Shown here piece by piece: positions 1,462 through 16,659 of a stretch of 16,659 bases of DNA. Position 1 is the first letter of the stretch, and every line of letters begins with the position of its first letter. The position numbers and the translations under genes were made by a program. Source of the DNA: a virus (taxonomy: Duplodnaviria; Heunggongvirae; Uroviricota; Caudoviricetes); IMG/VR virus record IMGVR_UViG_2548876696_000013. One strand, written 5' to 3'. The notes under the pieces were generated by a model that did no database searches, had not been told where the DNA came from, and worked only from the letters and a program-made list of their open reading frames with translations.

Positions 1462-1583
1462 ATATGTCCTTTTATCATTACACCAGGTCAAGTCATTGAT
1501 TTAATTAAACAATTATCATTGAAAAAGTGCCAAAAATCGCAAATTGACTACACCATTAACTACACCGTTCGGTGCACTGTATG

Positions 1584-1609
1584 AAACAACGTGGAACAAA
1601 TAGACACAA
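1584..1609 (+). repeat. Three 10-bp-phased NNACAA hexamers (AAACAA-cgtg-GAACAA-atag-ACACAA); candidate recombination-directionality-factor or regulator binding array near the island terminus
   Basis: Hexamers at 1584, 1594 and 1604 with exact 10-bp spacing. The 14-mer ACAACGTGGAACAA at 1586-1599 is identical to the one at 9161-9174. Confidence 0.5.
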
Positions 1610-7786: not shown

Positions 7787-8944
7787 TTAATCGTCGTCCT
7801 GTGGCAGTTCCAGAATCTTGATCGCGTTCGAATCCACCACGCCACCGCCTAAATATTTCTGCGTGAAAATTTTGATGAAGCCCGGCTCTGTGAGGTTGTC
7901 CGGTCTGGTGCGAACACCTGTTTCGTGATCAACAATGTAGTAACCGCGTTTGAAGTCACCCAGGGCAATAACGTTATCAGGCATAAACTCCAGATATTCG
8001 ACCGGAAGGCCCAGCAACGTATCAGGATCACCCGCCTGTAAACGGTCGCGCCAGATGTAATCACCGTTCGCGTTCTTCACCTTCTGAAGTTTTGCCGCCG
8101 TCGTGGAGTTAACCACCCAGACCGCGTTTTTGCGGTATTTTTTACGTAATGCAAATTTCAGGTCGATCAACGGGTCCGCAGATGTCCACGCCAGAGATTC
8201 GGAAGGTTTAATTACCTGCAACGTACCAAAATCACGCTCTTTGTCGTTCTTCTCTGCACGGGGTACGGATAAAAAGCCTTTTGCTTTTTTGTCACCGTCG
8301 CCCACAACCAGATCGCTTTCTTCGGTTTCCGTGAAGGTGTCGCCAATCTCACCCGTCAGCCATGAAAGGATGTCCACATCGGAAAAATCCACGATTTCCT
8401 GTGTGGTGCGCGGGTACGCATAGACCGGATACAGCTTAATGCTCACCTCGTTAATCTGCGGGGTGCTGGTCTGTTCGCGTGTCTTACCCTCTTCACCGTG
8501 GTTAACGGTCGCACCGCCAGCGGAAACAAGCTGCTTAAACTCGTTGCTGCTGATTTTCTTCACGGTACAGATGCGGCGCATGGTGGACTCATCCGCCAGC
8601 ATTCGCATGATTTCGGTGTTCAGCTCGGGGATAACGGTATAACCACCATCAGCGGGAACGCCTGTACTTAATGCGCGGGTTTCACCCGTCAGAATGTAGT
8701 TTCGTAGTTCTGCGGGGTCAGTGGTCTGACTGCTTTTACCTGGCTTGCTGCGCTCTTCGTCTGCAATGGCTTCAAGGCGGGAAATGTCTTTATCGAGGGA
8801 TTCAGCTTTAGCGCGTAATTCGTCAAATTTTGCGCCCTCAGCATCGTTAAGACTGCGGTTTTCTTTTTCCGCGTTCTCCAGCATGTCGCGCATCTGATTT
8901 TTAATGGCGGTTTTCTGCTGGCGTAATTCGATTATTCTCGGCAT
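7787..8944 (-). CDS. Major capsid protein, HK97 fold, with N-terminal coiled-coil delta (scaffold) domain (385 aa)
   Basis: N-terminal 100 aa are charged and helical (delta-domain-like), followed by a capsid-like body. First gene of the head operon. Confidence 0.9.
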   Translation of the reverse strand: MPRIIELRQQKTAIKNQMRDMLENAEKENRSLNDAEGAKFDELRAKAESLDKDISRLEAIADEERSKPGKSSQTTDPAELRNYILTGETRALSTGVPADGGYTVIPELNTEIMRMLADESTMRRICTVKKISSNEFKQLVSAGGATVNHGEEGKTREQTSTPQINEVSIKLYPVYAYPRTTQEIVDFSDVDILSWLTGEIGDTFTETEESDLVVGDGDKKAKGFLSVPRAEKNDKERDFGTLQVIKPSESLAWTSADPLIDLKFALRKKYRKNAVWVVNSTTAAKLQKVKNANGDYIWRDRLQAGDPDTLLGLPVEYLEFMPDNVIALGDFKRGYYIVDHETGVRTRPDNLTEPGFIKIFTQKYLGGGVVDSNAIKILELPQDDD

Positions 8945-8981
8945 AAAAAAAGTCCTGGGGTTAAGTAAGGAACTCCAGGAC
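8945..8981 (-). promoter_or_regulatory. Leader hairpin plus 7-nt A/U tract directly abutting the capsid start codon
   Basis: Stem GTCCTGG (8952-8958) pairs with CCAGGAC (8975-8981). On the mRNA the hairpin is followed by U7 and then the AUG at 8944; the only purine-rich SD-like element sits in the 3' arm of the stem. Confidence 0.5.
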
Positions 8982-9157
8982 GCGGCAAAAACTCAACCGT
9001 TTTTCATAAGGGAATCAGCAATCGCACCGATCGTTTTCCCGCCTGGTAATGAATATTGGCGAGCACATTAACAGGCGGGAAAGTGGCCCCAGCGTCCTGG
9101 CACCACGGGCGAGAATAATCATGATTCAGTTCGGGTAAAATATGCCGATCCGCTCAG

Positions 9158-9205
9158 TGAACAACGTGGAACAACCACGAACAAATAATTTACAAAAAAT
9201 AACAA
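9158..9205 (+). promoter_or_regulatory. Array of 10-bp-phased GAACAA hexamers upstream of the capsid operon; candidate activator-binding site
   Basis: GAACAA at 9159, 9169 and 9179 with spacers CGTG, CCAC and ATAA; two weaker ACAA copies follow at 9192 and 9202. Same motif family as 1584-1609 and 15338-15383. Confidence 0.5.
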
Positions 9206-9225
9206 AAAGCCGGATTGCTCCGGCT
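9192..9225 (-). terminator. Rho-independent terminator after the 74-aa gene
   Basis: Hairpin AGCCGGA-ttgc-TCCGGCT (9208-9225) followed on the minus strand by a U-rich tract; the gene's stop codon is at 9236. Confidence 0.7.
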
Positions 9226-9235
9226 GTATGGGTGC

Positions 9236-9460
9236 TCAGTCCCTGATCCCTTTCAGAAATTCTATCAATGCATCTGTCTGTTCAGGATTTACCGCCAGCA
9301 TTTCACCGGATAGCGCGCAACGAACAAAACCATGATGATCCTTTTCAATCAGCGCCCCCGTTTCCAGGAATGCTCGGTAATCAGTGATGTTCATCGTCTC
9401 CATGTTGTCAGCATGGTATTTATCACGCTGTTTTAATATCTCATCAAATTTCGTCGGCAT
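9236..9460 (-). CDS. Hypothetical protein (74 aa), insulated monocistronic gene
   Basis: Start chosen at the internal ATG (9458-9460), which has GAGGA 7 nt upstream. Flanked on both sides by near-identical terminator hairpins. Confidence 0.55.
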   Translation of the reverse strand: MPTKFDEILKQRDKYHADNMETMNITDYRAFLETGALIEKDHHGFVRCALSGEMLAVNPEQTDALIEFLKGIRD

Positions 9461-9554
9461 TGTTTTTTCCTCTGTTGTGTCTGTTTGTTTCAGATAGTAA
9501 CTATGCCGGACCGTGACGAAAAGCCAGTAGTGCGCCATACCATTTCAAATGACG

Positions 9555-9578
9555 CAAAAAAGCCGGATTGCTCCGGCT
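9555..9578 (-). terminator. Rho-independent terminator after the PerC-like gene (same hairpin sequence as 9208-9225)
   Basis: Hairpin AGCCGGATTGCTCCGGCT at 9561-9578 preceded on the plus strand by A6 (U6 on the minus-strand transcript). Upstream stop codon at 9601. Confidence 0.7.
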
Positions 9579-9600
9579 GCGTGGTGTGGTTCTGATATTC

Positions 9601-10270: not shown

Positions 10271-10518
10271 AATTCCACCTCTCCGGTTTTAACGTTGATG
10301 GTTGTTACCTGTTCCGCTTCGGCAATCTCCCGTTCTGTCAGCGTGGCAAAGTTTGCCGCTGCTGTGGTCATGAATGCGCTTATCAGGTCGGGATGTTCTT
10401 TCGCGTATCCTTCCCCCGCGTGGCGGTCTATCGTTCTGATTGCCACCTTTAAGGCGTGCTCTGTCATGTCTAATGCTTTATATTTTGGCGCTGTCTTATC
10501 TCTGGTTTTTCTGTTCAT
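10267..10518 (-). CDS. Hypothetical protein (83 aa), first gene after the origin
   Basis: ORF translationally coupled to ssb (ATGA overlap). Start abuts the iteron array. No family recognised. Confidence 0.5.
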   Translation of the reverse strand: MNRKTRDKTAPKYKALDMTEHALKVAIRTIDRHAGEGYAKEHPDLISAFMTTAAANFATLTEREIAEAEQVTTINVKTGEVEL

Positions 10519-10716
10519 TCCCCACTACTCCCCACTTTTGCTCCCCACTTTTTGAAATTACCCACCGTCTCCCCACCTCTTTTTTTTGTGATTCTAACGT
10601 TATGTTTTTCAATATGTTTTTTACTCCCCACTTTTTTGGGTGTATACAGGTGGGAAAGTGGGTAATTATGTTTCAATTTTGTTAAATTCCCCACTCTCCC
10701 CACTTTTACTCCCCAC
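10519..10716. repeat. Iteron-type replication origin: 8 direct TCCCCAC repeats, 1 variant, 2 inverted copies and an AT-rich spacer
   Basis: TCCCCAC at 10519, 10529, 10542, 10570, 10625, 10688, 10697 and 10710; variant ACCCACC at 10560; inverted copies at 10649-10664; AT-rich stretch at 10577-10624. Lies directly 3' of the replication ATPase gene. Confidence 0.7.
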
Positions 10717-10719
10717 TTT

Positions 10720-12129
10720 TTACAGCGGGCGCACGTCATCACCGTCAATAACGATTACGCCATCATTTTCCAGCTTGTACAGCCAGCGCCGGAAGTGCTT
10801 CATCTCATACCCCAGCTTTTTCATATCATCGCGGAGAAGGGCGATAGTGCACGCCTCCCCGTGTGCTGTTCGTGTTCTGATGCACTGCCATAGCGCGGCG
10901 TGATTCTCCGTCTTGTTCCCTGCCTCCTCGATGCGCTCCAGTTCAACGGGAGGGCGCGGCTTATCCACCACCACCAGCGACGTGATTAACTCCCCGTCAG
11001 CGTCGGTAAAAAGCTCCACCACCCGCAAATCATAGGCAGCCTCTTTGAGTTCCTCCGCGTCCTTCATTTTGGTGCATGAGATAACCAGCGCTTCGCTTCC
11101 TGCGTCCTCCCTGCGTATCCGGTATTCAGCATCCAGTGATGCACGAAATGCACTGGAACCGCGCGCGCCTTTCGTCTCATCCTTGCCGGAATGGTGAACC
11201 ACCAGCACCGTGGCCCCTGTGCGCCGTTTCAGTTCGTCACACCCACGGATAAACGCCCCCATGTCACGGGAATCATTTTCGTCATTGCCGCCAAAGCAAC
11301 GCGCCAGCGTGTCCAGAATAATCATGCGAACAGGTTTACCCGTTTCCCGCTCAACCTGGCTGGCAGCAATAACCAGTTCATCAACATCAAGCGGGACAGC
11401 CGGAAAGATGGGACGGTTTACAAGGTAAAGATTTTTCACCTGCTCCCCGTGCACAACCTCCCAGGCTTTTACACGACGCGGAACGCCAATACCGCCTTCA
11501 CCAACCACATAGAGAACAGCGCCATGCGCCACCCTGCGGCCTCCCCACTGGCGGCCCGTGGAAACGTGACACGCCCACGATCCGGCAAGGAATGATTTAT
11601 AGGAACCGCTCGCCCCGTATATGCTGCAAAGCGACGATGCCGGAATAATCCCCTTTACCACGTAATCAAGCTGTGTGTCGTATCCGGTAGATCCAACGCT
11701 CATCGGTAGCGTGGTTTTTCGCTGGGGGATTTTTTTCATGACCAGGCTTTCCCCGCGTTCCCATGCCTCCCTAAGCCGTGGAAGCTGGTCGTTCCATTCC
11801 TCCAGCAATTCGAAATTTTCAGAAAGTAGCCGCGCCTCCTGGACTCCGGCGATCGCCAGTTTCGTGGCGATGGTTAACAGCTGCGGCTCTTCAATATTTC
11901 CGGCGCGTATCACCGTCGCCCTGTATCGCCCATCATCAACAATCTGGAGGTTATCCAGTTCGCTTAACTGATAACGCCCCAGATAAACGGGAGGGACTGG
12001 ATCGCCTGCTTTTTTGGCCTGTGCAATGATGTAGTGCTCTGCAAATGAGTGCGCATTATTCCCCGCGAAAATAATTGCTTCGGTGTATTTGTCTTTCGGT
12101 AATAGTTTTACGTTCGGTGCAAGTTTCAT
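10720..12129 (-). CDS. Replication initiation ATPase / helicase-like protein, RecA-fold AAA type (469 aa)
   Basis: Walker A motif GASGSYKS, Walker B-like MIILDTLARCF, and a C-terminal putative winged-helix region. Position immediately upstream of the iterons. Confidence 0.8.
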   Translation of the reverse strand: MKLAPNVKLLPKDKYTEAIIFAGNNAHSFAEHYIIAQAKKAGDPVPPVYLGRYQLSELDNLQIVDDGRYRATVIRAGNIEEPQLLTIATKLAIAGVQEARLLSENFELLEEWNDQLPRLREAWERGESLVMKKIPQRKTTLPMSVGSTGYDTQLDYVVKGIIPASSLCSIYGASGSYKSFLAGSWACHVSTGRQWGGRRVAHGAVLYVVGEGGIGVPRRVKAWEVVHGEQVKNLYLVNRPIFPAVPLDVDELVIAASQVERETGKPVRMIILDTLARCFGGNDENDSRDMGAFIRGCDELKRRTGATVLVVHHSGKDETKGARGSSAFRASLDAEYRIRREDAGSEALVISCTKMKDAEELKEAAYDLRVVELFTDADGELITSLVVVDKPRPPVELERIEEAGNKTENHAALWQCIRTRTAHGEACTIALLRDDMKKLGYEMKHFRRWLYKLENDGVIVIDGDDVRPL

Positions 12130-12821: not shown

Positions 12822-13107
12822 GTGAAAGGCTCCCAGATGAAATTTAAGGAGTCTCGCTACTACGCTGCTAAACGGGGTGGCGAGACGTAACAGGGTTAGC
12901 AGACTGGTCATCTGGAAACCAGCGAGCGCAAAGGCTCCCCCGTTACGCCCCGCCATAATGCGGGTATGGGTAGGTTTACGGACACAAAAAAACCGCTTAT
13001 CGGATATGGGCGGCTGTCCGCCAGATGTATTCAGGCTGCTAAACCCGGTCGCCATGTGGGCGACGGGTGAAGCATACAGCCCCGTTATAATTTTTTGCAA
13101 GCGGCTT

Positions 13108-13305
13108 TTACTCATGATGTGACCCCTGACGAATACGAGCGGCAAATACAGCAACACAACCGGACGGGCAACGGTTACGCGCTTCGCGTTCCGTCCAGGC
13201 GGTGACGTGGATGATTTGAGATTCTCCGGCACTCAGGGCCAGAAAACGCCACACAAAGGCCGTTTGTGTGTGTACAAGGTGTGGTATATGATTTACGGCA
13301 ACCAT
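13108..13305 (-). CDS. Small protein, paralog A (65 aa); possible host cell-division-inhibitor Icd-like protein
   Basis: Strong SD (GAGGAG 6 nt upstream of the ATG). Paralogous to 12651-12821. The Icd-like call rests on an uncertain memory of the family pattern. Confidence 0.5.
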   Translation of the reverse strand: MVAVNHIPHLVHTQTAFVWRFLALSAGESQIIHVTAWTEREARNRCPSGCVAVFAARIRQGSHHE

Positions 13306-13336
13306 AACGGCTCCTCGTTTACGTTGTTGGTTAGAA

Positions 13337-13377
13337 GCCCCGTATGTGTTCCAGCACTGCGGGGTTTCGTCTTTTCT
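13337..13377 (+). terminator. Hairpin (ccccg / cgggg stem, conserved 17-nt loop) with a U-rich tail; plus-strand terminator-like element, copy 1
   Basis: Seen in sequence. A near-identical element, including the loop, occurs at 14083-14124. Confidence 0.45.
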
Positions 13378-13394
13378 GTACCTTGCATCAACAA

Positions 13395-13476
13395 GGTGTA
13401 AGACACAATGTAAAATAACGGTGTCTTACACGTCAACCCTTCAAAATATTTTTTTTTCGTGTATATTGTCTTACAC
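13395..13476. promoter_or_regulatory. Divergent promoter/operator region with three GTCTTACAC sites (one inverted pair and one direct copy)
   Basis: GGTGTAAGACAC at 13395-13406 is the reverse complement of GTGTCTTACAC at 13421-13431; a third copy lies at 13467-13476. A possible sigma70 promoter (TTCAAA, 16-nt spacer, TATATT) sits at 13440-13467. Confidence 0.5.
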
Positions 13477-13497
13477 CAAAAACATGAGGGGTTAAAC

Positions 13498-13677
13498 ATG
13501 GCAACGGGGCCAAAGAATGCAAAATCACAATCTGTAACTGCACGTATTGCCCATGAAATTATTGAAGGCATGGAGAACGTGAAAGAAGAAGGTGAAAGCA
13601 CGGGGCAGTTTATAAACGCAGCCATGCGCGGCGAAATCAAACGCCGCCAGCGTCGCAAGGCCAAAGAATCAGAATAA
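13498..13677 (+). CDS. Ribbon-helix-helix (CopG/Arc/MetJ-like) DNA-binding protein (59 aa); candidate repressor
   Basis: GAGGGG SD 7 nt upstream of the ATG. Beta-strand/helix/helix pattern (QSVTARIAHEIIEGMENVKEEGESTGQFINAAMRGEI) and a basic C-terminal tail. Confidence 0.55.
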   Translation: MATGPKNAKSQSVTARIAHEIIEGMENVKEEGESTGQFINAAMRGEIKRRQRRKAKESE

Positions 13678-13734
13678 TCACTATCAGCGCCGTGGTGTGA
13701 GGTACTACGGCGCATTGCTTTACAGGGCAGTATC

Positions 13735-13962
13735 ATGACCAACAACACACTATCACCAATACAAGACACGCAAACGCAAGATGATGAAATCATCCGGCAA
13801 AGGCAGTCAGAAGCCTGCGCCAGACTTGAGGAAGAACTAACCAGAACAAAAATACCACCACCAGCGCCGCGCTTAGTGCCACCAGAAAAATTTGCCCTTG
13901 AAGATTTTGTCGATAAATACCCACGGCGGCTTAAATCCGGCAAAAACCGACCGCCAGGATGA
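13735..13962 (+). CDS. Small hydrophilic protein (75 aa), partner of the RHH protein, module 1
   Basis: Paralogous to 14420-14623 (both start MTN; shared motif F-x-L-[ED]-[DE]-F-[VL]-x-K-Y-[PS]-R). Weak SD. Confidence 0.4.
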   Translation: MTNNTLSPIQDTQTQDDEIIRQRQSEACARLEEELTRTKIPPPAPRLVPPEKFALEDFVDKYPRRLKSGKNRPPG

Positions 13963-14082
13963 GTGCACAAAACCGAACTATGAAACGGATTATTCCGTTT
14001 CCGGGGCGTTTGTGTGTGTATAAAGAGTAAGCTATGCTCTTTTATAGCCATAATCGTTACCTCAATTAATGGTTTGGTTAGA

Positions 14083-14124
14083 CGCCCCGTATGTGTTCCC
14101 ATCACTGCGGGGCGTTGTTTTTTG
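14083..14124 (+). terminator. Rho-independent terminator-like hairpin (CGCCCCG / CGGGGCG) plus TTGTTTTTTG, copy 2
   Basis: 7-bp stem, 18-nt loop nearly identical to the loop at 13343-13359, then a T-rich tract. Confidence 0.5.
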
Positions 14125-14130
14125 TGCTAG

Positions 14131-14164
14131 TTGTGTGTAATGTGTATATACACATAAACACATT
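14131..14164. promoter_or_regulatory. Operator-like 16-bp perfect palindrome ATGTGTATATACACAT (14140-14155) overlapping a putative -10 element
   Basis: Perfect palindrome seen directly. Possible promoter TTGTGC (14122-14127), 17-nt spacer, TATATA (14145-14150). Confidence 0.45.
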
Positions 14165-14182
14165 ATATGGGGTGTAATTGAC

Positions 14183-14362
14183 GTGTCAACACACAAGAAT
14201 GAAAGGCGTGGTAATCCTCCTTTCCAGTTCCGTTTAGATCCTGACTTACGGGAAAAGATGGAAAAAGCACAACAACAAGACGGTGATGACTCTTTAGCTG
14301 CTTGGATAAAACGAATAATCCGAAAAGAATTACAGCAACGCGGTATTGAACCCAAAGAATAA
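14183..14362 (+). CDS. Arc-like ribbon-helix-helix protein (59 aa, GTG start)
   Basis: Absent from the supplied ORF track because it is only 59 aa. GGGGTG SD 8 nt upstream of GTG at 14183. The pattern PPFQFRLDPDLREKMEKAQQQDGDDSLAAWIKRIIRKEL matches the Arc/RHH fold. Confidence 0.5.
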   Translation: MSTHKNERRGNPPFQFRLDPDLREKMEKAQQQDGDDSLAAWIKRIIRKELQQRGIEPKE

Positions 14363-14419
14363 AAAACATCAGCGCCGTGGCGTGAGGAACTCCGGCGCAT
14401 TGCTTTACAGGTACACACA

Positions 14420-14623
14420 ATGACCAATAAAGAATCAACCAATACACCATCGCAAAAAACGAACAGAGAGCACGAAAATATGGCGCTCGAGCATGAATCA
14501 GAAAGATTCGCTCCATGCGCTTTTGTCCTTGATGAGTTTCTAAAAAAATATTCACGTTCTGAACGGATGAAAATGGCAGCACAATACGGCCCCAACAAGC
14601 AAGGTAATTGCCCACCAGCCTGA
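14420..14623 (+). CDS. Small hydrophilic protein (67 aa), partner of the RHH protein, module 2
   Basis: Paralog of 13735-13962; preceded by the same conserved hairpin element. Confidence 0.4.
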   Translation: MTNKESTNTPSQKTNREHENMALEHESERFAPCAFVLDEFLKKYSRSERMKMAAQYGPNKQGNCPPA

Positions 14624-14697
14624 TAGCGGCTATCATTCCCGTGCTTATGTTTGGGATCACATACACATAAGGCGCAGCAGGTTAATTGTTCAGAAAG

Positions 14698-14726
14698 GCG
14701 GCTCCATATCGGGGCCGCTTTTTTTA
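14698..14726 (+). terminator. Strong Rho-independent terminator (GCGGCTCC-atatc-GGGGCCGC then T7)
   Basis: 8-bp GC-rich stem with one G-U pair, 5-nt loop, seven T's. Ends the plus-strand modules and lies convergent with the alpA 3' end. Confidence 0.75.
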
Positions 14727-14866
14727 TGCCTGAAAAACCCCAATTTTGTTGTTTTTCAGTTTCACCAGGGCGAACGAATCCCCGCCCACGTTCGGGCGCA
14801 TATTCAATCTTCATAGTTATATCTCTGTATTAGTGGATGTGTGGCGACTGTGTGCCGCCAGTCTTT

Positions 14867-15055
14867 TTAGTGAACTGCCTTGCAGCTATCCTTCCAGGCC
14901 AAAACCTCAGATAAAGACCAGCCAACAGAACGCCCACCAAGTTTACGACGTGATGGGAATTGTCCGGCCTTTTCCAGGCGGTAGCGGCATGAGCGGCTAA
15001 GGCCTGTTAGCTTTTCGCATTCTTTTTCACGTATAAACCGATCAGTGCTTAACAC
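14867..15055 (-). CDS. alpA: AlpA-family phage regulatory protein / excisionase-like HTH (62 aa, GTG start)
   Basis: Motif KLTGLSRSCRYRLEKAGQFPSRRKLGGRSVGWSLSEVLAWK is typical of the AlpA/Vis family. SD AAGGGGG lies 7 nt upstream of the GTG. Confidence 0.85.
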   Translation of the reverse strand: MLSTDRFIREKECEKLTGLSRSCRYRLEKAGQFPSRRKLGGRSVGWSLSEVLAWKDSCKAVH

Positions 15056-15214
15056 TATTGCCCCCTTTCGTTTCTTAAAGAGTTATTTCGTGTTCTATTG
15101 CGTTGGGATGTGTCTGATTGTGTCAGGATGATTCAGAGTTGGCAAATGTTGGTGTCGCATGGTTTACAGAAAGAGGAATAATCAGGATAAAATCATTTAA
15201 ATTCATATCAATAC

Positions 15215-15246
15215 AAAGGCATAAAATCTTGTTTTATGCCTTTTTT
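15215..15246. terminator. Bidirectional hairpin terminator between int and alpA (AAAGGCATAAAA-tcttg-TTTTATGCCTTT then T6)
   Basis: 12-bp stem seen in sequence. T-tract on the plus strand and an A/U-rich flank on the minus strand. Confidence 0.6.
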
Positions 15247-15337: not shown

Positions 15338-15383
15338 TTGTTCGTGATTGTGTCACGTTGTTGCACATTGTTTCACGTTGTAT
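15338..15383 (-). promoter_or_regulatory. Five exactly 10-bp-phased NNACAA hexamers (minus-strand orientation) with CGTG/TGTG spacers
   Basis: Plus-strand TTGTTC, TTGTGT, TTGTTG, TTGTTT and TTGTAT at 15338, 15348, 15358, 15368 and 15378. Located 47-92 bp downstream of the int stop codon. Confidence 0.55.
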
Positions 15384-15429
15384 CTGTGCACTTATCCAGT
15401 ATGCGCATACTGAAAAAACACGAAAAAAA

Positions 15430-16659
15430 TTATTTTATTCTGGTTACTGGTAGCGTGGTTACGTTTTCATGTGTTCCCGCCAGTATCTCCAACCGCTCCA
15501 CCCACATATCAAGCGCATTGCGTTTCGCATCAATATAGCGGGAATGGTTGTACACGCGTTGCATTCCTGGCATCTGGTGGCCTGTAAGCTGCTCCACGAC
15601 GTGAGGATCAACGCCTAAATCGTTCAGCATGGTTGTAAAGGTGCGCCGGATGTCATGCAGTGACCAGTGAGGGTGTTTAAGCCTCCTGTGCACCAATCTG
15701 CCGTACTGCGATACGCTGGTTTCCTGTTTCACTTCCCCCAGCAATAAGCCCGTGTGCCTGTTCTGCTCCACCAGCTGCGTGACGAACGGCAGTATCGCTT
15801 CCGGTATGGGCCGGAATATGGCTACCTTCGTTTTGCTGTGCTCCTTCGGAACGGTCCAGAGCATTTCGGTAAAATCCCACTCGCCGATCTCCGATAACCT
15901 CAGTTCTACTGTCCGGCATCCGAAAACAATCAGGAGGCGGATTAGTGCGACGTAGTAAGGGGAAAATATTTTTTTGTCCAGTGCCTGCAATAATTCGCCA
16001 AGTTCTTTGTTACTTAAGACACGCTCACTTATATCCGGTTTTTTCCCAACGTCCGCCACACTCATATCATCAAGAACGTTGCTGATTGCATAGCGCCGCT
16101 TCCTGCAGAACTTAAGCGCCTGCTTGCATGTCTGTAGCAGGAACCCGGCGGAAACAGGGGCTTTCTTTGCCACCCGATCAAAACAGGCCAGCCAGTGCCG
16201 TAGCTCGCATTTATCCAGCGGCATAGGGCCAATGTGCTGTATTACGTGATTATTTAGCCGCTTTTTCAGTGGGTCATAATCCACACGGTTTTCCTTTGCG
16301 TACGACTCAAGCCAGTAGGTGAGCGCATCGCCAACCGTTACCGGCTTTAACGCTTCCTGTACGGTGTAATTCATTTCATGACGTGGATTTTTCCCCTCTG
16401 CCAGCCATGCGCGACACTGGGCGGCTTTTTCCCTGGCTGATTTCAGGCTCAGATCAGGATAATTTCCCAGCTTAATGCGTTCCGGTGGTGCCCCCCTTCC
16501 CGTTCCGGCCCTGTAAGTGAAATACCAGGTTAAAAGGCCACTGGTTGAATGCCTGACGCTCAGGTTTCCACCGTCATTAAGAAAGGCTGTTTTTTGGGCG
16601 GGTGTGCCGTTGATTTTCCTCAGCTGTGTATCGCTCAGTTTGTTAAGTGCTCTGCTCAT
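15430..16659 (-). CDS. int: Tyrosine site-specific integrase, P4-like (409 aa; start codon is the last three bases of the window)
   Basis: N-terminal arm-binding-like region (LSDTQLRKI ... DGGNLSVRHSTSGLLTWYFTYR) and a C-terminal catalytic region with conserved R, HxxR and Y (HDIRRTF ... YNHSRYID). The upstream RBS is outside the window, so the true start could lie further out. Confidence 0.9.
   Translation of the reverse strand: MSRALNKLSDTQLRKINGTPAQKTAFLNDGGNLSVRHSTSGLLTWYFTYRAGTGRGAPPERIKLGNYPDLSLKSAREKAAQCRAWLAEGKNPRHEMNYTVQEALKPVTVGDALTYWLESYAKENRVDYDPLKKRLNNHVIQHIGPMPLDKCELRHWLACFDRVAKKAPVSAGFLLQTCKQALKFCRKRRYAISNVLDDMSVADVGKKPDISERVLSNKELGELLQALDKKIFSPYYVALIRLLIVFGCRTVELRLSEIGEWDFTEMLWTVPKEHSKTKVAIFRPIPEAILPFVTQLVEQNRHTGLLLGEVKQETSVSQYGRLVHRRLKHPHWSLHDIRRTFTTMLNDLGVDPHVVEQLTGHQMPGMQRVYNHSRYIDAKRNALDMWVERLEILAGTHENVTTLPVTRIK

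Follow-up and report, generated by a model that had tools for sequence, protein, structure and literature searches.

The window analysed here, the whole 16,659-nucleotide stretch of IMG/VR virus record IMGVR_UViG_2548876696_000013, is an EcCIEDL933-type capsid-forming phage-inducible chromosomal island (cf-PICI) between phoQ and roxA. It carries three arrays of a TTGTTC(N4) repeat phased at 10 bp, and one of them, array A2, stands upstream of the operon for the HK97-type capsid and the packaging proteins. Our best reading is that the island's own AlpA protein binds cooperatively at A2 and activates the late promoter of this operon; judging from sequence comparison, we hold this with moderate confidence. 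The arrays are a fresh example of a well-known type of element, the operators of excisionase-type dual regulators. Their distinctive and useful feature is that A2 would mark the late promoter of capsid-forming PICIs. A preliminary description of the same DNA had proposed that such repeats are binding sites of an AlpA-like protein. Each computational comparison that was able to refute the idea turned out in its favour. Support comes from the AlpA-clade specificity of the motif, from its replacement by CACCGGA repeats where AlpA is of another type, and from the placement of the arrays on an att arm, in the alpA region and at the capsid promoter. From these observations we infer AlpA binding and activation.

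The GAACAA hexamers noticed earlier on the + strand at 9159, 9169 and 9179 are correctly placed and correspond to three TTGTTCNNNN units on the − strand (9175–9184, 9165–9174 and 9155–9164), 215–240 bp upstream of the capsid ATG at 8944. The 14-mer ACAACGTGGAACAA at 9161–9174 does recur at 1586–1599, in array A1, and the five-copy array in the opposite orientation is array A3, at 15338–15387, which lies 43 bp beyond the int stop codon and about 280–330 bp upstream of the alpA start. The two weaker copies described next to A2 fared differently. That near 9192 is part of a conserved block, TTTTGTAAATTAT, but is offset by 11 bp; more specifically, the − strand hexamer TTGTAA at 9190–9195 lies 11 bp upstream of A2 unit 1 and, given its conservation, may count as a genuine though degenerate fourth unit. 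The other, near 9202, falls within the T-tract of a terminator and is not kept in the second lineage. In relatives the motif has four fixed positions: both att arms, the int–alpA spacer and the region upstream of the HK97-type capsid operon. A4, the fourth full array, is located upstream of int, immediately past the window's right end. Unit numbers range from 3 to 6 among 51 unique arrays (in the window 3 in A1, 3 (+1) in A2 and 5 in A3). The window has five matches to the pattern TTGT-N6-TTGT-N6-TTGT, where 0.01 are expected and 200 shuffles gave at most 1; all five fall inside A1, A2 and A3. When spacings of 6–15 bp were tried with a position weight matrix, three-unit arrays were found at 10 bp only. 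Operators of the recombination directionality factor (RDF) type are recognised by helical-turn spacing, at least three units, sites on att arms, reuse at promoters and a co-varying cognate small winged helix-turn-helix RDF, and all of these are found here. Two further units, TTGTGTCTGT TTGTTTCAG, resemble the two-unit site close to alpA.

A2 is present in all 21 loci with the window-type capsid and, among eight loci with the second type of cf-PICI capsid, in six; in the remaining two the middle unit is degenerate. It is absent from the late modules of CFT073 type (21/21) and L010 type (5/5). Between lineages A and B, whose capsids are 74% identical, TTTTGTAAATTAT and the three units (about 44 bp) are ~97% identical, while the flanking promoter and leader DNA is unrelated. 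By this comparison A2 is a phylogenetic footprint. A consensus promoter scan around A2 returned nothing above threshold. We place the late promoter, of sigma-70 type, at 9139–9112 because three lineages share one geometry and because homology to another island sets in just past its −10. After the last unit follow 17–18 bp, TTTAC(C/A), 16 bp, TAT(NN)T, 7 bp and the conserved leader (TTTACA-16-TATGTT in lineage B, TTTACA-16-TATCTT in island L205). The L004 island has a near-consensus TTGCGA-16-TATAAT instead, and its homology to the window resumes exactly 7 nt after the −10. Transcription would then start at about 9104–9106. Counted from this predicted start, the A2 hexamers span about −79 to −54 and the degenerate unit about −90 to −85, with unit centres at about −56, −66, −76 and −87; A2 ends 18 bp upstream of the window's −35. 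For a short array, a place directly ahead of a weak −35 is classically that of an activator, and the weakness of the promoter, which the scan did not call, fits activator dependence.

The occurrence of the motif depends on the type of AlpA. AlpA loci were collected by scans of IMG/VR, and a scan of a species-representative genome collection yielded 3 loci. Loci with AlpA of window, L009 or L010 type (0.93 Mb) have 133 three-unit arrays and loci with the two AlpA genes L003a and L003b (0.28 Mb) have 10, which makes 143 in 1.2 Mb of islands encoding a window-clade AlpA. Satellites and prophages with AlpA of other types, 1.35 Mb in all, have 0, so the phased motif does not recur in unrelated satellite or prophage DNA, which would have spoken against the proposal; nor were TTGTTC arrays seen in the chromosomal flanks of L008–L010. 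The search of related islands that had been suggested thus found arrays abundant only where AlpA is of the window clade. A3 is present in 67 of the 68 loci with window-type AlpA. EcCICFT073 (L008) and a yifB-inserted cf-PICI (L002), which have near-identical AlpA, carry A1, A3 and A4, A3 being expanded to six units. Islands of L009 and L010 type (AlpA 56–66% identical) keep TTGTTCG arrays, L009 even though its arm doublet is TGTGTGGTCAGT instead of GGTGTAGTTAAT. L003-type islands, with a 43% identical Int, other arm doublets and no TTGTTC arrays at att, keep A2; of their two AlpA genes the paralog L003b is 55% identical and shares the TGLSRSxR helix and the SVxW wing. L003b is found only in helper-embedded PICIs (HE-PICIs) that have a capsid-forming late module and A2, and 62 other HE-PICI loci have neither a close L003b paralog nor arrays. 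The L004-type island and 29 relatives have unrelated AlpA and Int (24% identity) and no TTGTTC arrays; their att arm and the stretch immediately upstream of alpA carry CACCGG(A) repeats at 10-bp spacing instead, and TTTAGTTATACG makes up their arm doublets. These comparisons indicate that the motif is tied to the AlpA clade rather than to Int, PerC or the host. It follows AlpA and not Int because L009, with its changed doublet, and L003, with its diverged Int, retain it. As a separate observation, genes for three AlpA-like proteins stand in a row in L205 (9990–10900), a diverged helper-embedded island of cf type, whose array upstream of the capsid has the divergent units TTGTGCGTCA TCTTTCAAGA CTGTTCGGAG.

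AlpA scores 65.2 bits against PF05930 (cut-off 21, E = 5e-18) and is homologous to PDB entry 8c3t, 'AlpA family phage regulatory protein' (E = 2.6e-6); these matches settle its family membership at the sequence level. A search for literature on entry 8C3T gave nothing relevant. The TTGTTC(N4) unit of 10 bp would be the operator half-site of this 62-aa winged-helix RDF-type protein. AlpA would bind head-to-tail and cooperatively to at least three units one helical turn apart, as P2 Cox, 186 Apl, P4 Vis and lambda Xis do. RDFs bind direct repeats 10–11 bp apart, and Apl needs three adjacent operators (PMC7498355). A1 and A4, next to integrase arm-site doublets, would serve excision, and A3 together with the two-unit site at the alpA promoter would serve auto-activation, which is documented: in EcCICFT073 AlpA activates its own promoter, PalpA (PMC6092414). 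AlpA bound at A2 would activate the capsid/packaging operon, presumably through contact with RNA polymerase, by positioning the enzyme or through a bend in the DNA. Promoter activation by an RDF has precedents in RdfS (PMC11963761) and in P2 Cox, which activates PLL of P4 as cited in PMC7498355. If one AlpA regulator acts at all arrays, this would explain why excision, alpA and capsid production are switched on together. The preliminary description treated the three arrays as one kind of switch, and this would suit A2, upstream of the packaging operon; it did not notice that A1, on the att arm, and A3, in the alpA region, would have different jobs. In the window the predicted PalpA has the layout TTGCCA-17-TGaCACAAT (15145–15117), and a two-unit site, CCTGACACAATCAGACACA (15109–15127), overlaps its −10. 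Reading the sequence for an antisense promoter that would run from A3 into the 3' end of int with the geometry of A2, we found no convincing −35/−10.

Several points weigh against AlpA as activator at A2. Most RDFs studied at promoters repress, as do Apl and, at Pc, Cox. In the searchable literature we found neither binding or expression data for the TTGTTC motif nor a published AlpA operator of PICIs. The position weight matrix was derived from the arrays it scores, so that the motif logo is not independent; the zero count in control DNA is independent of these training arrays. AlpA and Int mostly travel together, and covariation therefore separates them only partly; at the sequence level it is the L009 and L003 cases that tell them apart. 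The predicted PalpA −35 is about 190 bp downstream of A3, a conserved bidirectional terminator-like hairpin separates the two, and the two-unit site overlapping the PalpA −10 may matter instead of A3 or besides it. A4 abuts Pint of EcCICFT073, and this promoter does not respond to AlpA (PMC6092414). Finally, EcCICFT073 has the same AlpA and A1, A3 and A4 but no A2. A2 is therefore no general need for AlpA-dependent late expression, and late-gene control differs between classic and capsid-forming PICIs.

If AlpA binds A2, it might also do so as a repressor, as an insulator or roadblock, or as a purely architectural element. We consider this unlikely, although the characterised promoter operators of RDFs are mostly repressive (Apl at pR/pL, Cox at Pc and TorI at PintS; PMC7498355; PMC2951348), A2 comes directly after a terminator, and the strongly structured leader of the operon could hold the real control. 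Being placed upstream of the −35, the A2 units leave the core promoter free, and that promoter is weak to begin with. Islands without A2 have a near-consensus promoter in the same register, and overexpression of alpA leads to capsid production (10.1101/2025.02.11.637232). As to the leader itself, it is roughly 160 nt long and ends in a hairpin, GTCCTGG...CCAGGAC, followed by U7 directly before the AUG, and it is kept in L004 and in another relative, L001. An AGGA ribosome-binding site lies within the terminal stem, and the 5' segment CCAGGACGC (9092–9100) is perfectly complementary to GCGTCCTGG (8975–8983). From its predicted fold the leader is a possible attenuator or translational switch.

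The preliminary description left open whether the island's AlpA or a Cox/Vis-type protein of the helper phage is bound. Published results on EcCIEDL933 favour the first of these. Its alpA mutant shows no induction and no transfer (10.1101/2022.09.08.507074), cf-PICI capsids form without a helper phage, and alpA overexpression has been used for EcCIEDL933 capsid production (10.1101/2025.02.11.637232). An island-encoded activator therefore fits better than one from the helper phage. A helper Xis/Cox-type RDF or another early helper protein as the physiological binder that switches on the island seems to us less likely still than repression by AlpA. It has a precedent in the action of P2 Cox on P4 PLL (as cited in PMC7498355), and helper phages induce alpA expression of EcCICFT073 through an unidentified factor (PMC6092414). 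Against it stand the helper-free capsids, the fact that the motif tracks the island's own AlpA clade, and the lack of any match of the A2 block in 50,697 phage records. The two binders do not exclude each other; cross-recognition of the AlpA sites by a helper RDF is possible.

Each att-arm array stands beside a GGTGTAGTYAAT doublet, which is probably an integrase arm site. A1 is 13 bp from the doublet at 1543–1566. In three relatives (L001, L183 and L263) A4 consists of TTGTTCCAGC TTGTTTCACG TTGTAGCCCT TTGTGCAACG and is followed, 3 bp on, by GGTGTAGTTAAT GGTGTAGTTAAT. In L001 the doublets are restricted to the two att arms (the int-side pair is at 15998–16021). Because the same doublet stands beside A1 and A4, the excised circle would have the same co-oriented module on each side of the core ATATGTCC, with three or four TTGTTC units and then the doublet. 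We take the four half-sites of the doublets to be integrase arm sites and the arrays to be RDF sites. The opposite assignment, in which the arrays are arm-type sites of the island integrase (Arm-DNA-bind_3) and the internal copies decoys or relics, is very unlikely. It would suit the position of two of the four arrays on att arms, the tandem arm sites P'1–3 of lambda and the usual co-variation of Int and AlpA, but a separate motif, the 12-bp doublets, is confined to the att arms. Moreover, the doublets change with the type of Int (GGTGTAGTTAAT, TGTGTGGTCAGT, TGTGTATTGCAC, TTTAGTTATACG) while TTGTTCG persists, the L003 type keeps A2 without TTGTTC at att, and the conservation of A2 and A3, in place as well as in sequence, does not suit relics.

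In every PICI family that we examined, the att core is flanked by co-oriented 12-bp doublets, the sequence of which varies with the integrase type (compared were the window at 1543–1566, L001 at 15998–16021, and the att arms of L003, L004 and L009). A 'doubled motif' has been stated to be unique to helper-embedded PICIs, its binder being left open (PMC10111431); the statement of uniqueness appears too narrow. The likeness to that motif extends to fixed distances on either side of the attP core: the centres of the doublets lie ~89 bp and an estimated 145 bp from the core in the window family, and 81 and 132 bp in HE-PICIs (PMC10111431). The difference is that HE-PICI att arms have no TTGTTC arrays, whereas the doublets of the window family are flanked by them.

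An equally improbable alternative is that another island protein (PerC, DUF4222 or an unknown one) or a host response regulator of PhoP, ArcA or OmpR type binds the arrays, or that A2 is a mere module junction: the PerC gene lies just upstream of A2 in the window, regulators of the OmpR/PhoB family bind direct repeats of 10–11 bp, TGTAAATTATTTGTTC loosely resembles an ArcA box and the A2 block sits at a boundary of mosaic modules, but PerC is missing from lineage B islands that carry A2, DUF4222 occurs in islands without any TTGTTC array, the period is a strict 10 bp and not the 11 bp of PhoP and ArcA boxes, and neither a host regulator nor a junction explains the restriction to one AlpA clade and the recurrence on att arms.

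Some known elements were rejected outright. PhoP/ArcA boxes have an 11-bp period and occur at host promoters whatever the type of island; the strict 10-bp period and the array-free 1.35 Mb of other satellite and prophage DNA do not agree with them. Replication-origin iterons flank an AT-rich unwinding region beside the rep gene, at one locus; here a separate set of iterons, TCCCCACT, stands directly downstream of the RepA helicase gene (10509–10721), and the TTGTTC arrays are at four dispersed loci. A late promoter of the P2 Ogr/P4 Delta kind has a TGT-N12-ACA dyad near −55; the region from −45 to −90 shows direct repeats, from which no dyad can be formed. The AlpA of Pseudomonas aeruginosa, a Q-like antiterminator, shares only its name with the window AlpA, which has 62 aa and belongs to PF05930. 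Contact residues R128–H142 of the P. aeruginosa protein (PMC9371919) are impossible in a protein of this length, and the other marks of that system, a GGGACG site between −35 and −10 and a ring at the RNA exit channel, do not apply to the window AlpA.

Among known systems, P2 Cox and its cox boxes are similar in that a small excisionase-type protein uses helical-turn direct repeats at att and at promoters, and an array bound by Cox at P4 PLL activates a satellite promoter. Here the proposed binder is the satellite's own AlpA, the motif is TTGTTC(N4), arrays stand on both att arms, and binding is putative. 186 Apl is likewise both RDF and regulator, with direct repeats 10–11 bp apart, five of them at att and seven in a remote promoter region, and its need for three or more adjacent operators agrees with the three to six units found here (PMC7498355). 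The Apl sites serve to repress face-to-face promoters, whereas A2 precedes one weak promoter and is placed as an activator site would be; Apl also has an outlier helix-turn-helix, whereas the window protein belongs to PF05930. P4 Vis and the AlpA proteins of CP4-57 and CP4So are members of PF05930 too, small regulators next to a P4-type integrase that combine excisionase function with promoter control, but P4 and CP4-57 have no counterpart to the control of a complete HK97-type capsid/packaging operon. RdfS of ICEMlSym R7A (PMC11963761) and TorI of KplE1 (PMC2951348) are winged-helix RDFs that act at att near the int promoter and on transcription. RdfS oligomerises and activates PintS and PrdfG (PMC11963761), and the TorI study concerns control of the integrase gene intS (PMC2951348). 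These belong to an integrative and conjugative element and a prophage, have other motifs and are not known to have an array at a structural-gene operon.

If the arrays make up a complete AlpA regulon, a single 62-aa excisionase would couple excision, its own amplification and the expression of capsid and packaging genes, and helper-independent production of tail-less capsids would be explained. More directly, this would account for the DNA-filled capsids that cf-PICIs can make with alpA as the only gene expressed. Gram-negative PICIs have AlpA as their master switch, and its operator would be TTGTTC-N4 in at least three units, in 10-bp phase, at four fixed positions. The wiring would lead from the att arms to excision and from the alpA region to auto-activation, and the late-promoter array would exist in capsid-forming PICIs only, a regulatory contrast with classic PICIs such as EcCICFT073. 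In the helper-embedded relatives the two tasks would fall to different paralogs, RDF function to L003a, the copy beside int, and activation of the late operon to L003b. The arrays could also be the entry point for Xis/Cox-type proteins of helper phages, which would then be the inducers of Gram-negative PICIs. All of this combined, i.e. a self-starting AlpA regulon of four sites, a division of labour between HE-PICI paralogs and a possible helper entry point, is a tentative and rather doubtful proposition. The motif can be used for annotating PICIs and their att arms.

Table 1. Positions of the elements discussed, in window coordinates
Feature	Position	Strand	Basis or remark
att core and island junction ATATGTCC	1462..1469	+	directly 3' of phoQ stop codon
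doublet GGTGTAGTTAAT GGTGTAGTCAAT, putative integrase arm-type sites	1543..1566	−	second doublet upstream of int, outside window
array A1, units TTGTGTCTAT TTGTTCCACG TTGTTTCATA	1580..1609	−	att arm, 111–140 bp inside island end
HK97-type major capsid gene, first gene of operon	7787..8944	−	family matches
structured 5' leader of capsid operon	8945..9104	−	minimum free energy −65.8 kcal/mol, z = −4.9
predicted late promoter, −35 TTTACC (9134–9139), 16 bp, −10 TATTCT (9112–9117)	9112..9139	−	comparative geometry
array A2, units TTGTTCGTGG TTGTTCCACG TTGTTCACTG, putative AlpA operator	9155..9184	−	exact 10-bp spacing, conservation
AT-rich conserved 13-bp block TTTTGTAAATTAT	9185..9197	−	kept in lineages A and B and in L205; DNA further upstream differs
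intrinsic terminator of upstream gene, hairpin 9208–9225 and T-tract	9198..9225	−	duplicate at 9561–9578
two further units TTGTGTCTGT TTGTTTCAG	9475..9493	+	just upstream of 74-aa accessory open reading frame
alpA, 62 aa, proposed binder	14867..15055	−	PF05930
predicted PalpA, −35 TTGCCA (15140–15145), extended −10 TGaCACAAT	15109..15145	−	unchanged among five diverged islands
array A3, five units in the opposite orientation to A1 and A2	15338..15387	+	int–alpA spacer
int, tyrosine integrase, Arm-DNA-bind_3 and phage-integrase domains	15430..16659	−	domain matches

By gene content the window is a cf-PICI, with int, alpA, a replication module and its own HK97-type head/packaging set; tail and lysis genes are absent and the island occupies ~15 kb at a dedicated att site, as in the definition of the EcCIEDL933 family (10.1101/2022.09.08.507074). 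The assignment to the EcCIEDL933 type follows from the A2 region (8900–9300), which is 98% identical in O157:H7 islands at the same insertion site; A2 itself is identical in the O157:H7 island. phoQ occupies 1–1461, roxA lies on the opposite side of the island in relatives, and the match to island-free E. coli genomes stops at 1463–1469. GGACATAT is found again at the int-side junction of relatives. The main gene order on the − strand is int, alpA, a variable zone, DUF4222, a RepA-type helicase, SSB, PerC and the head/packaging operon, which continues after the capsid gene with protease, portal, head completion, connector, HNH, TerS and TerL, down to 2604.

Just upstream of A2, a 74-aa accessory open reading frame (ORF; 9236–9460, − strand), which is annotated in relatives, had been listed as 100 aa; the ATG at 9460, after GAGGAA, is probably the true start. 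It is flanked by two copies of the terminator AAAAAGCCGGATTGCTCCGGCTG (9204–9231 and 9557–9584). This cassette, which includes a two-unit TTGT site of its own (9475–9493), is missing in L001 and looks inserted between the PerC terminator and A2. In classic PICIs the late promoter is a near-consensus TTGCTC-N16-TATAAT (L008 17860–17935; L154–L180), and a hairpin with T-run, CATAACTGGATGAACATCCAGTTATGATTTTTT, comes right after it, ahead of all late genes. The arrangement recalls lambda PR'-tR' and by analogy suggests control by antitermination and not by an AlpA array.

The variable zone contains, at 12873–12960 on the − strand, a match to C4 antisense RNA (RF01695, Rfam 71.6 bits against a gathering score of 45), the immunity-RNA family of P1/P7 and P4 CI. 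At 13459–14623 the + strand carries two tandem pairs of small genes, against the direction of the other island genes, and the small-gene unit is duplicated (13671–13745 and 14356–14430). One of the four small + strand ORFs (13459–13677) belongs to the YlcI/YnfO family by NCBIfam (64 bits), and a second (14183–14362) has an NCBIfam score under the cut-off. The overlapping long − strand ORFs of 250 and 270 aa within 13293–14814 had no family match in a Pfam search and are probably spurious. Transcripts of the + strand small genes would traverse alpA in antisense and reach the conserved bidirectional hairpin at 15218–15240, the stem of which shows compensatory changes between islands. Iterons, CTCCCCACTTTT and variants, form clusters ~84 bp apart at 10509–10721, between the RepA-helicase gene and the next ORF, and this region probably serves the island as its origin of replication. 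At 1898–2316, past the last ORF and before the island end, there are at least four copies of a composite repeat, 88–135 bp apart, each a hairpin (e.g. CCTCAAATTGAGG) followed by GGAAATATCAAC; they are a candidate cos/packaging site for the HNH–TerS–TerL machinery.

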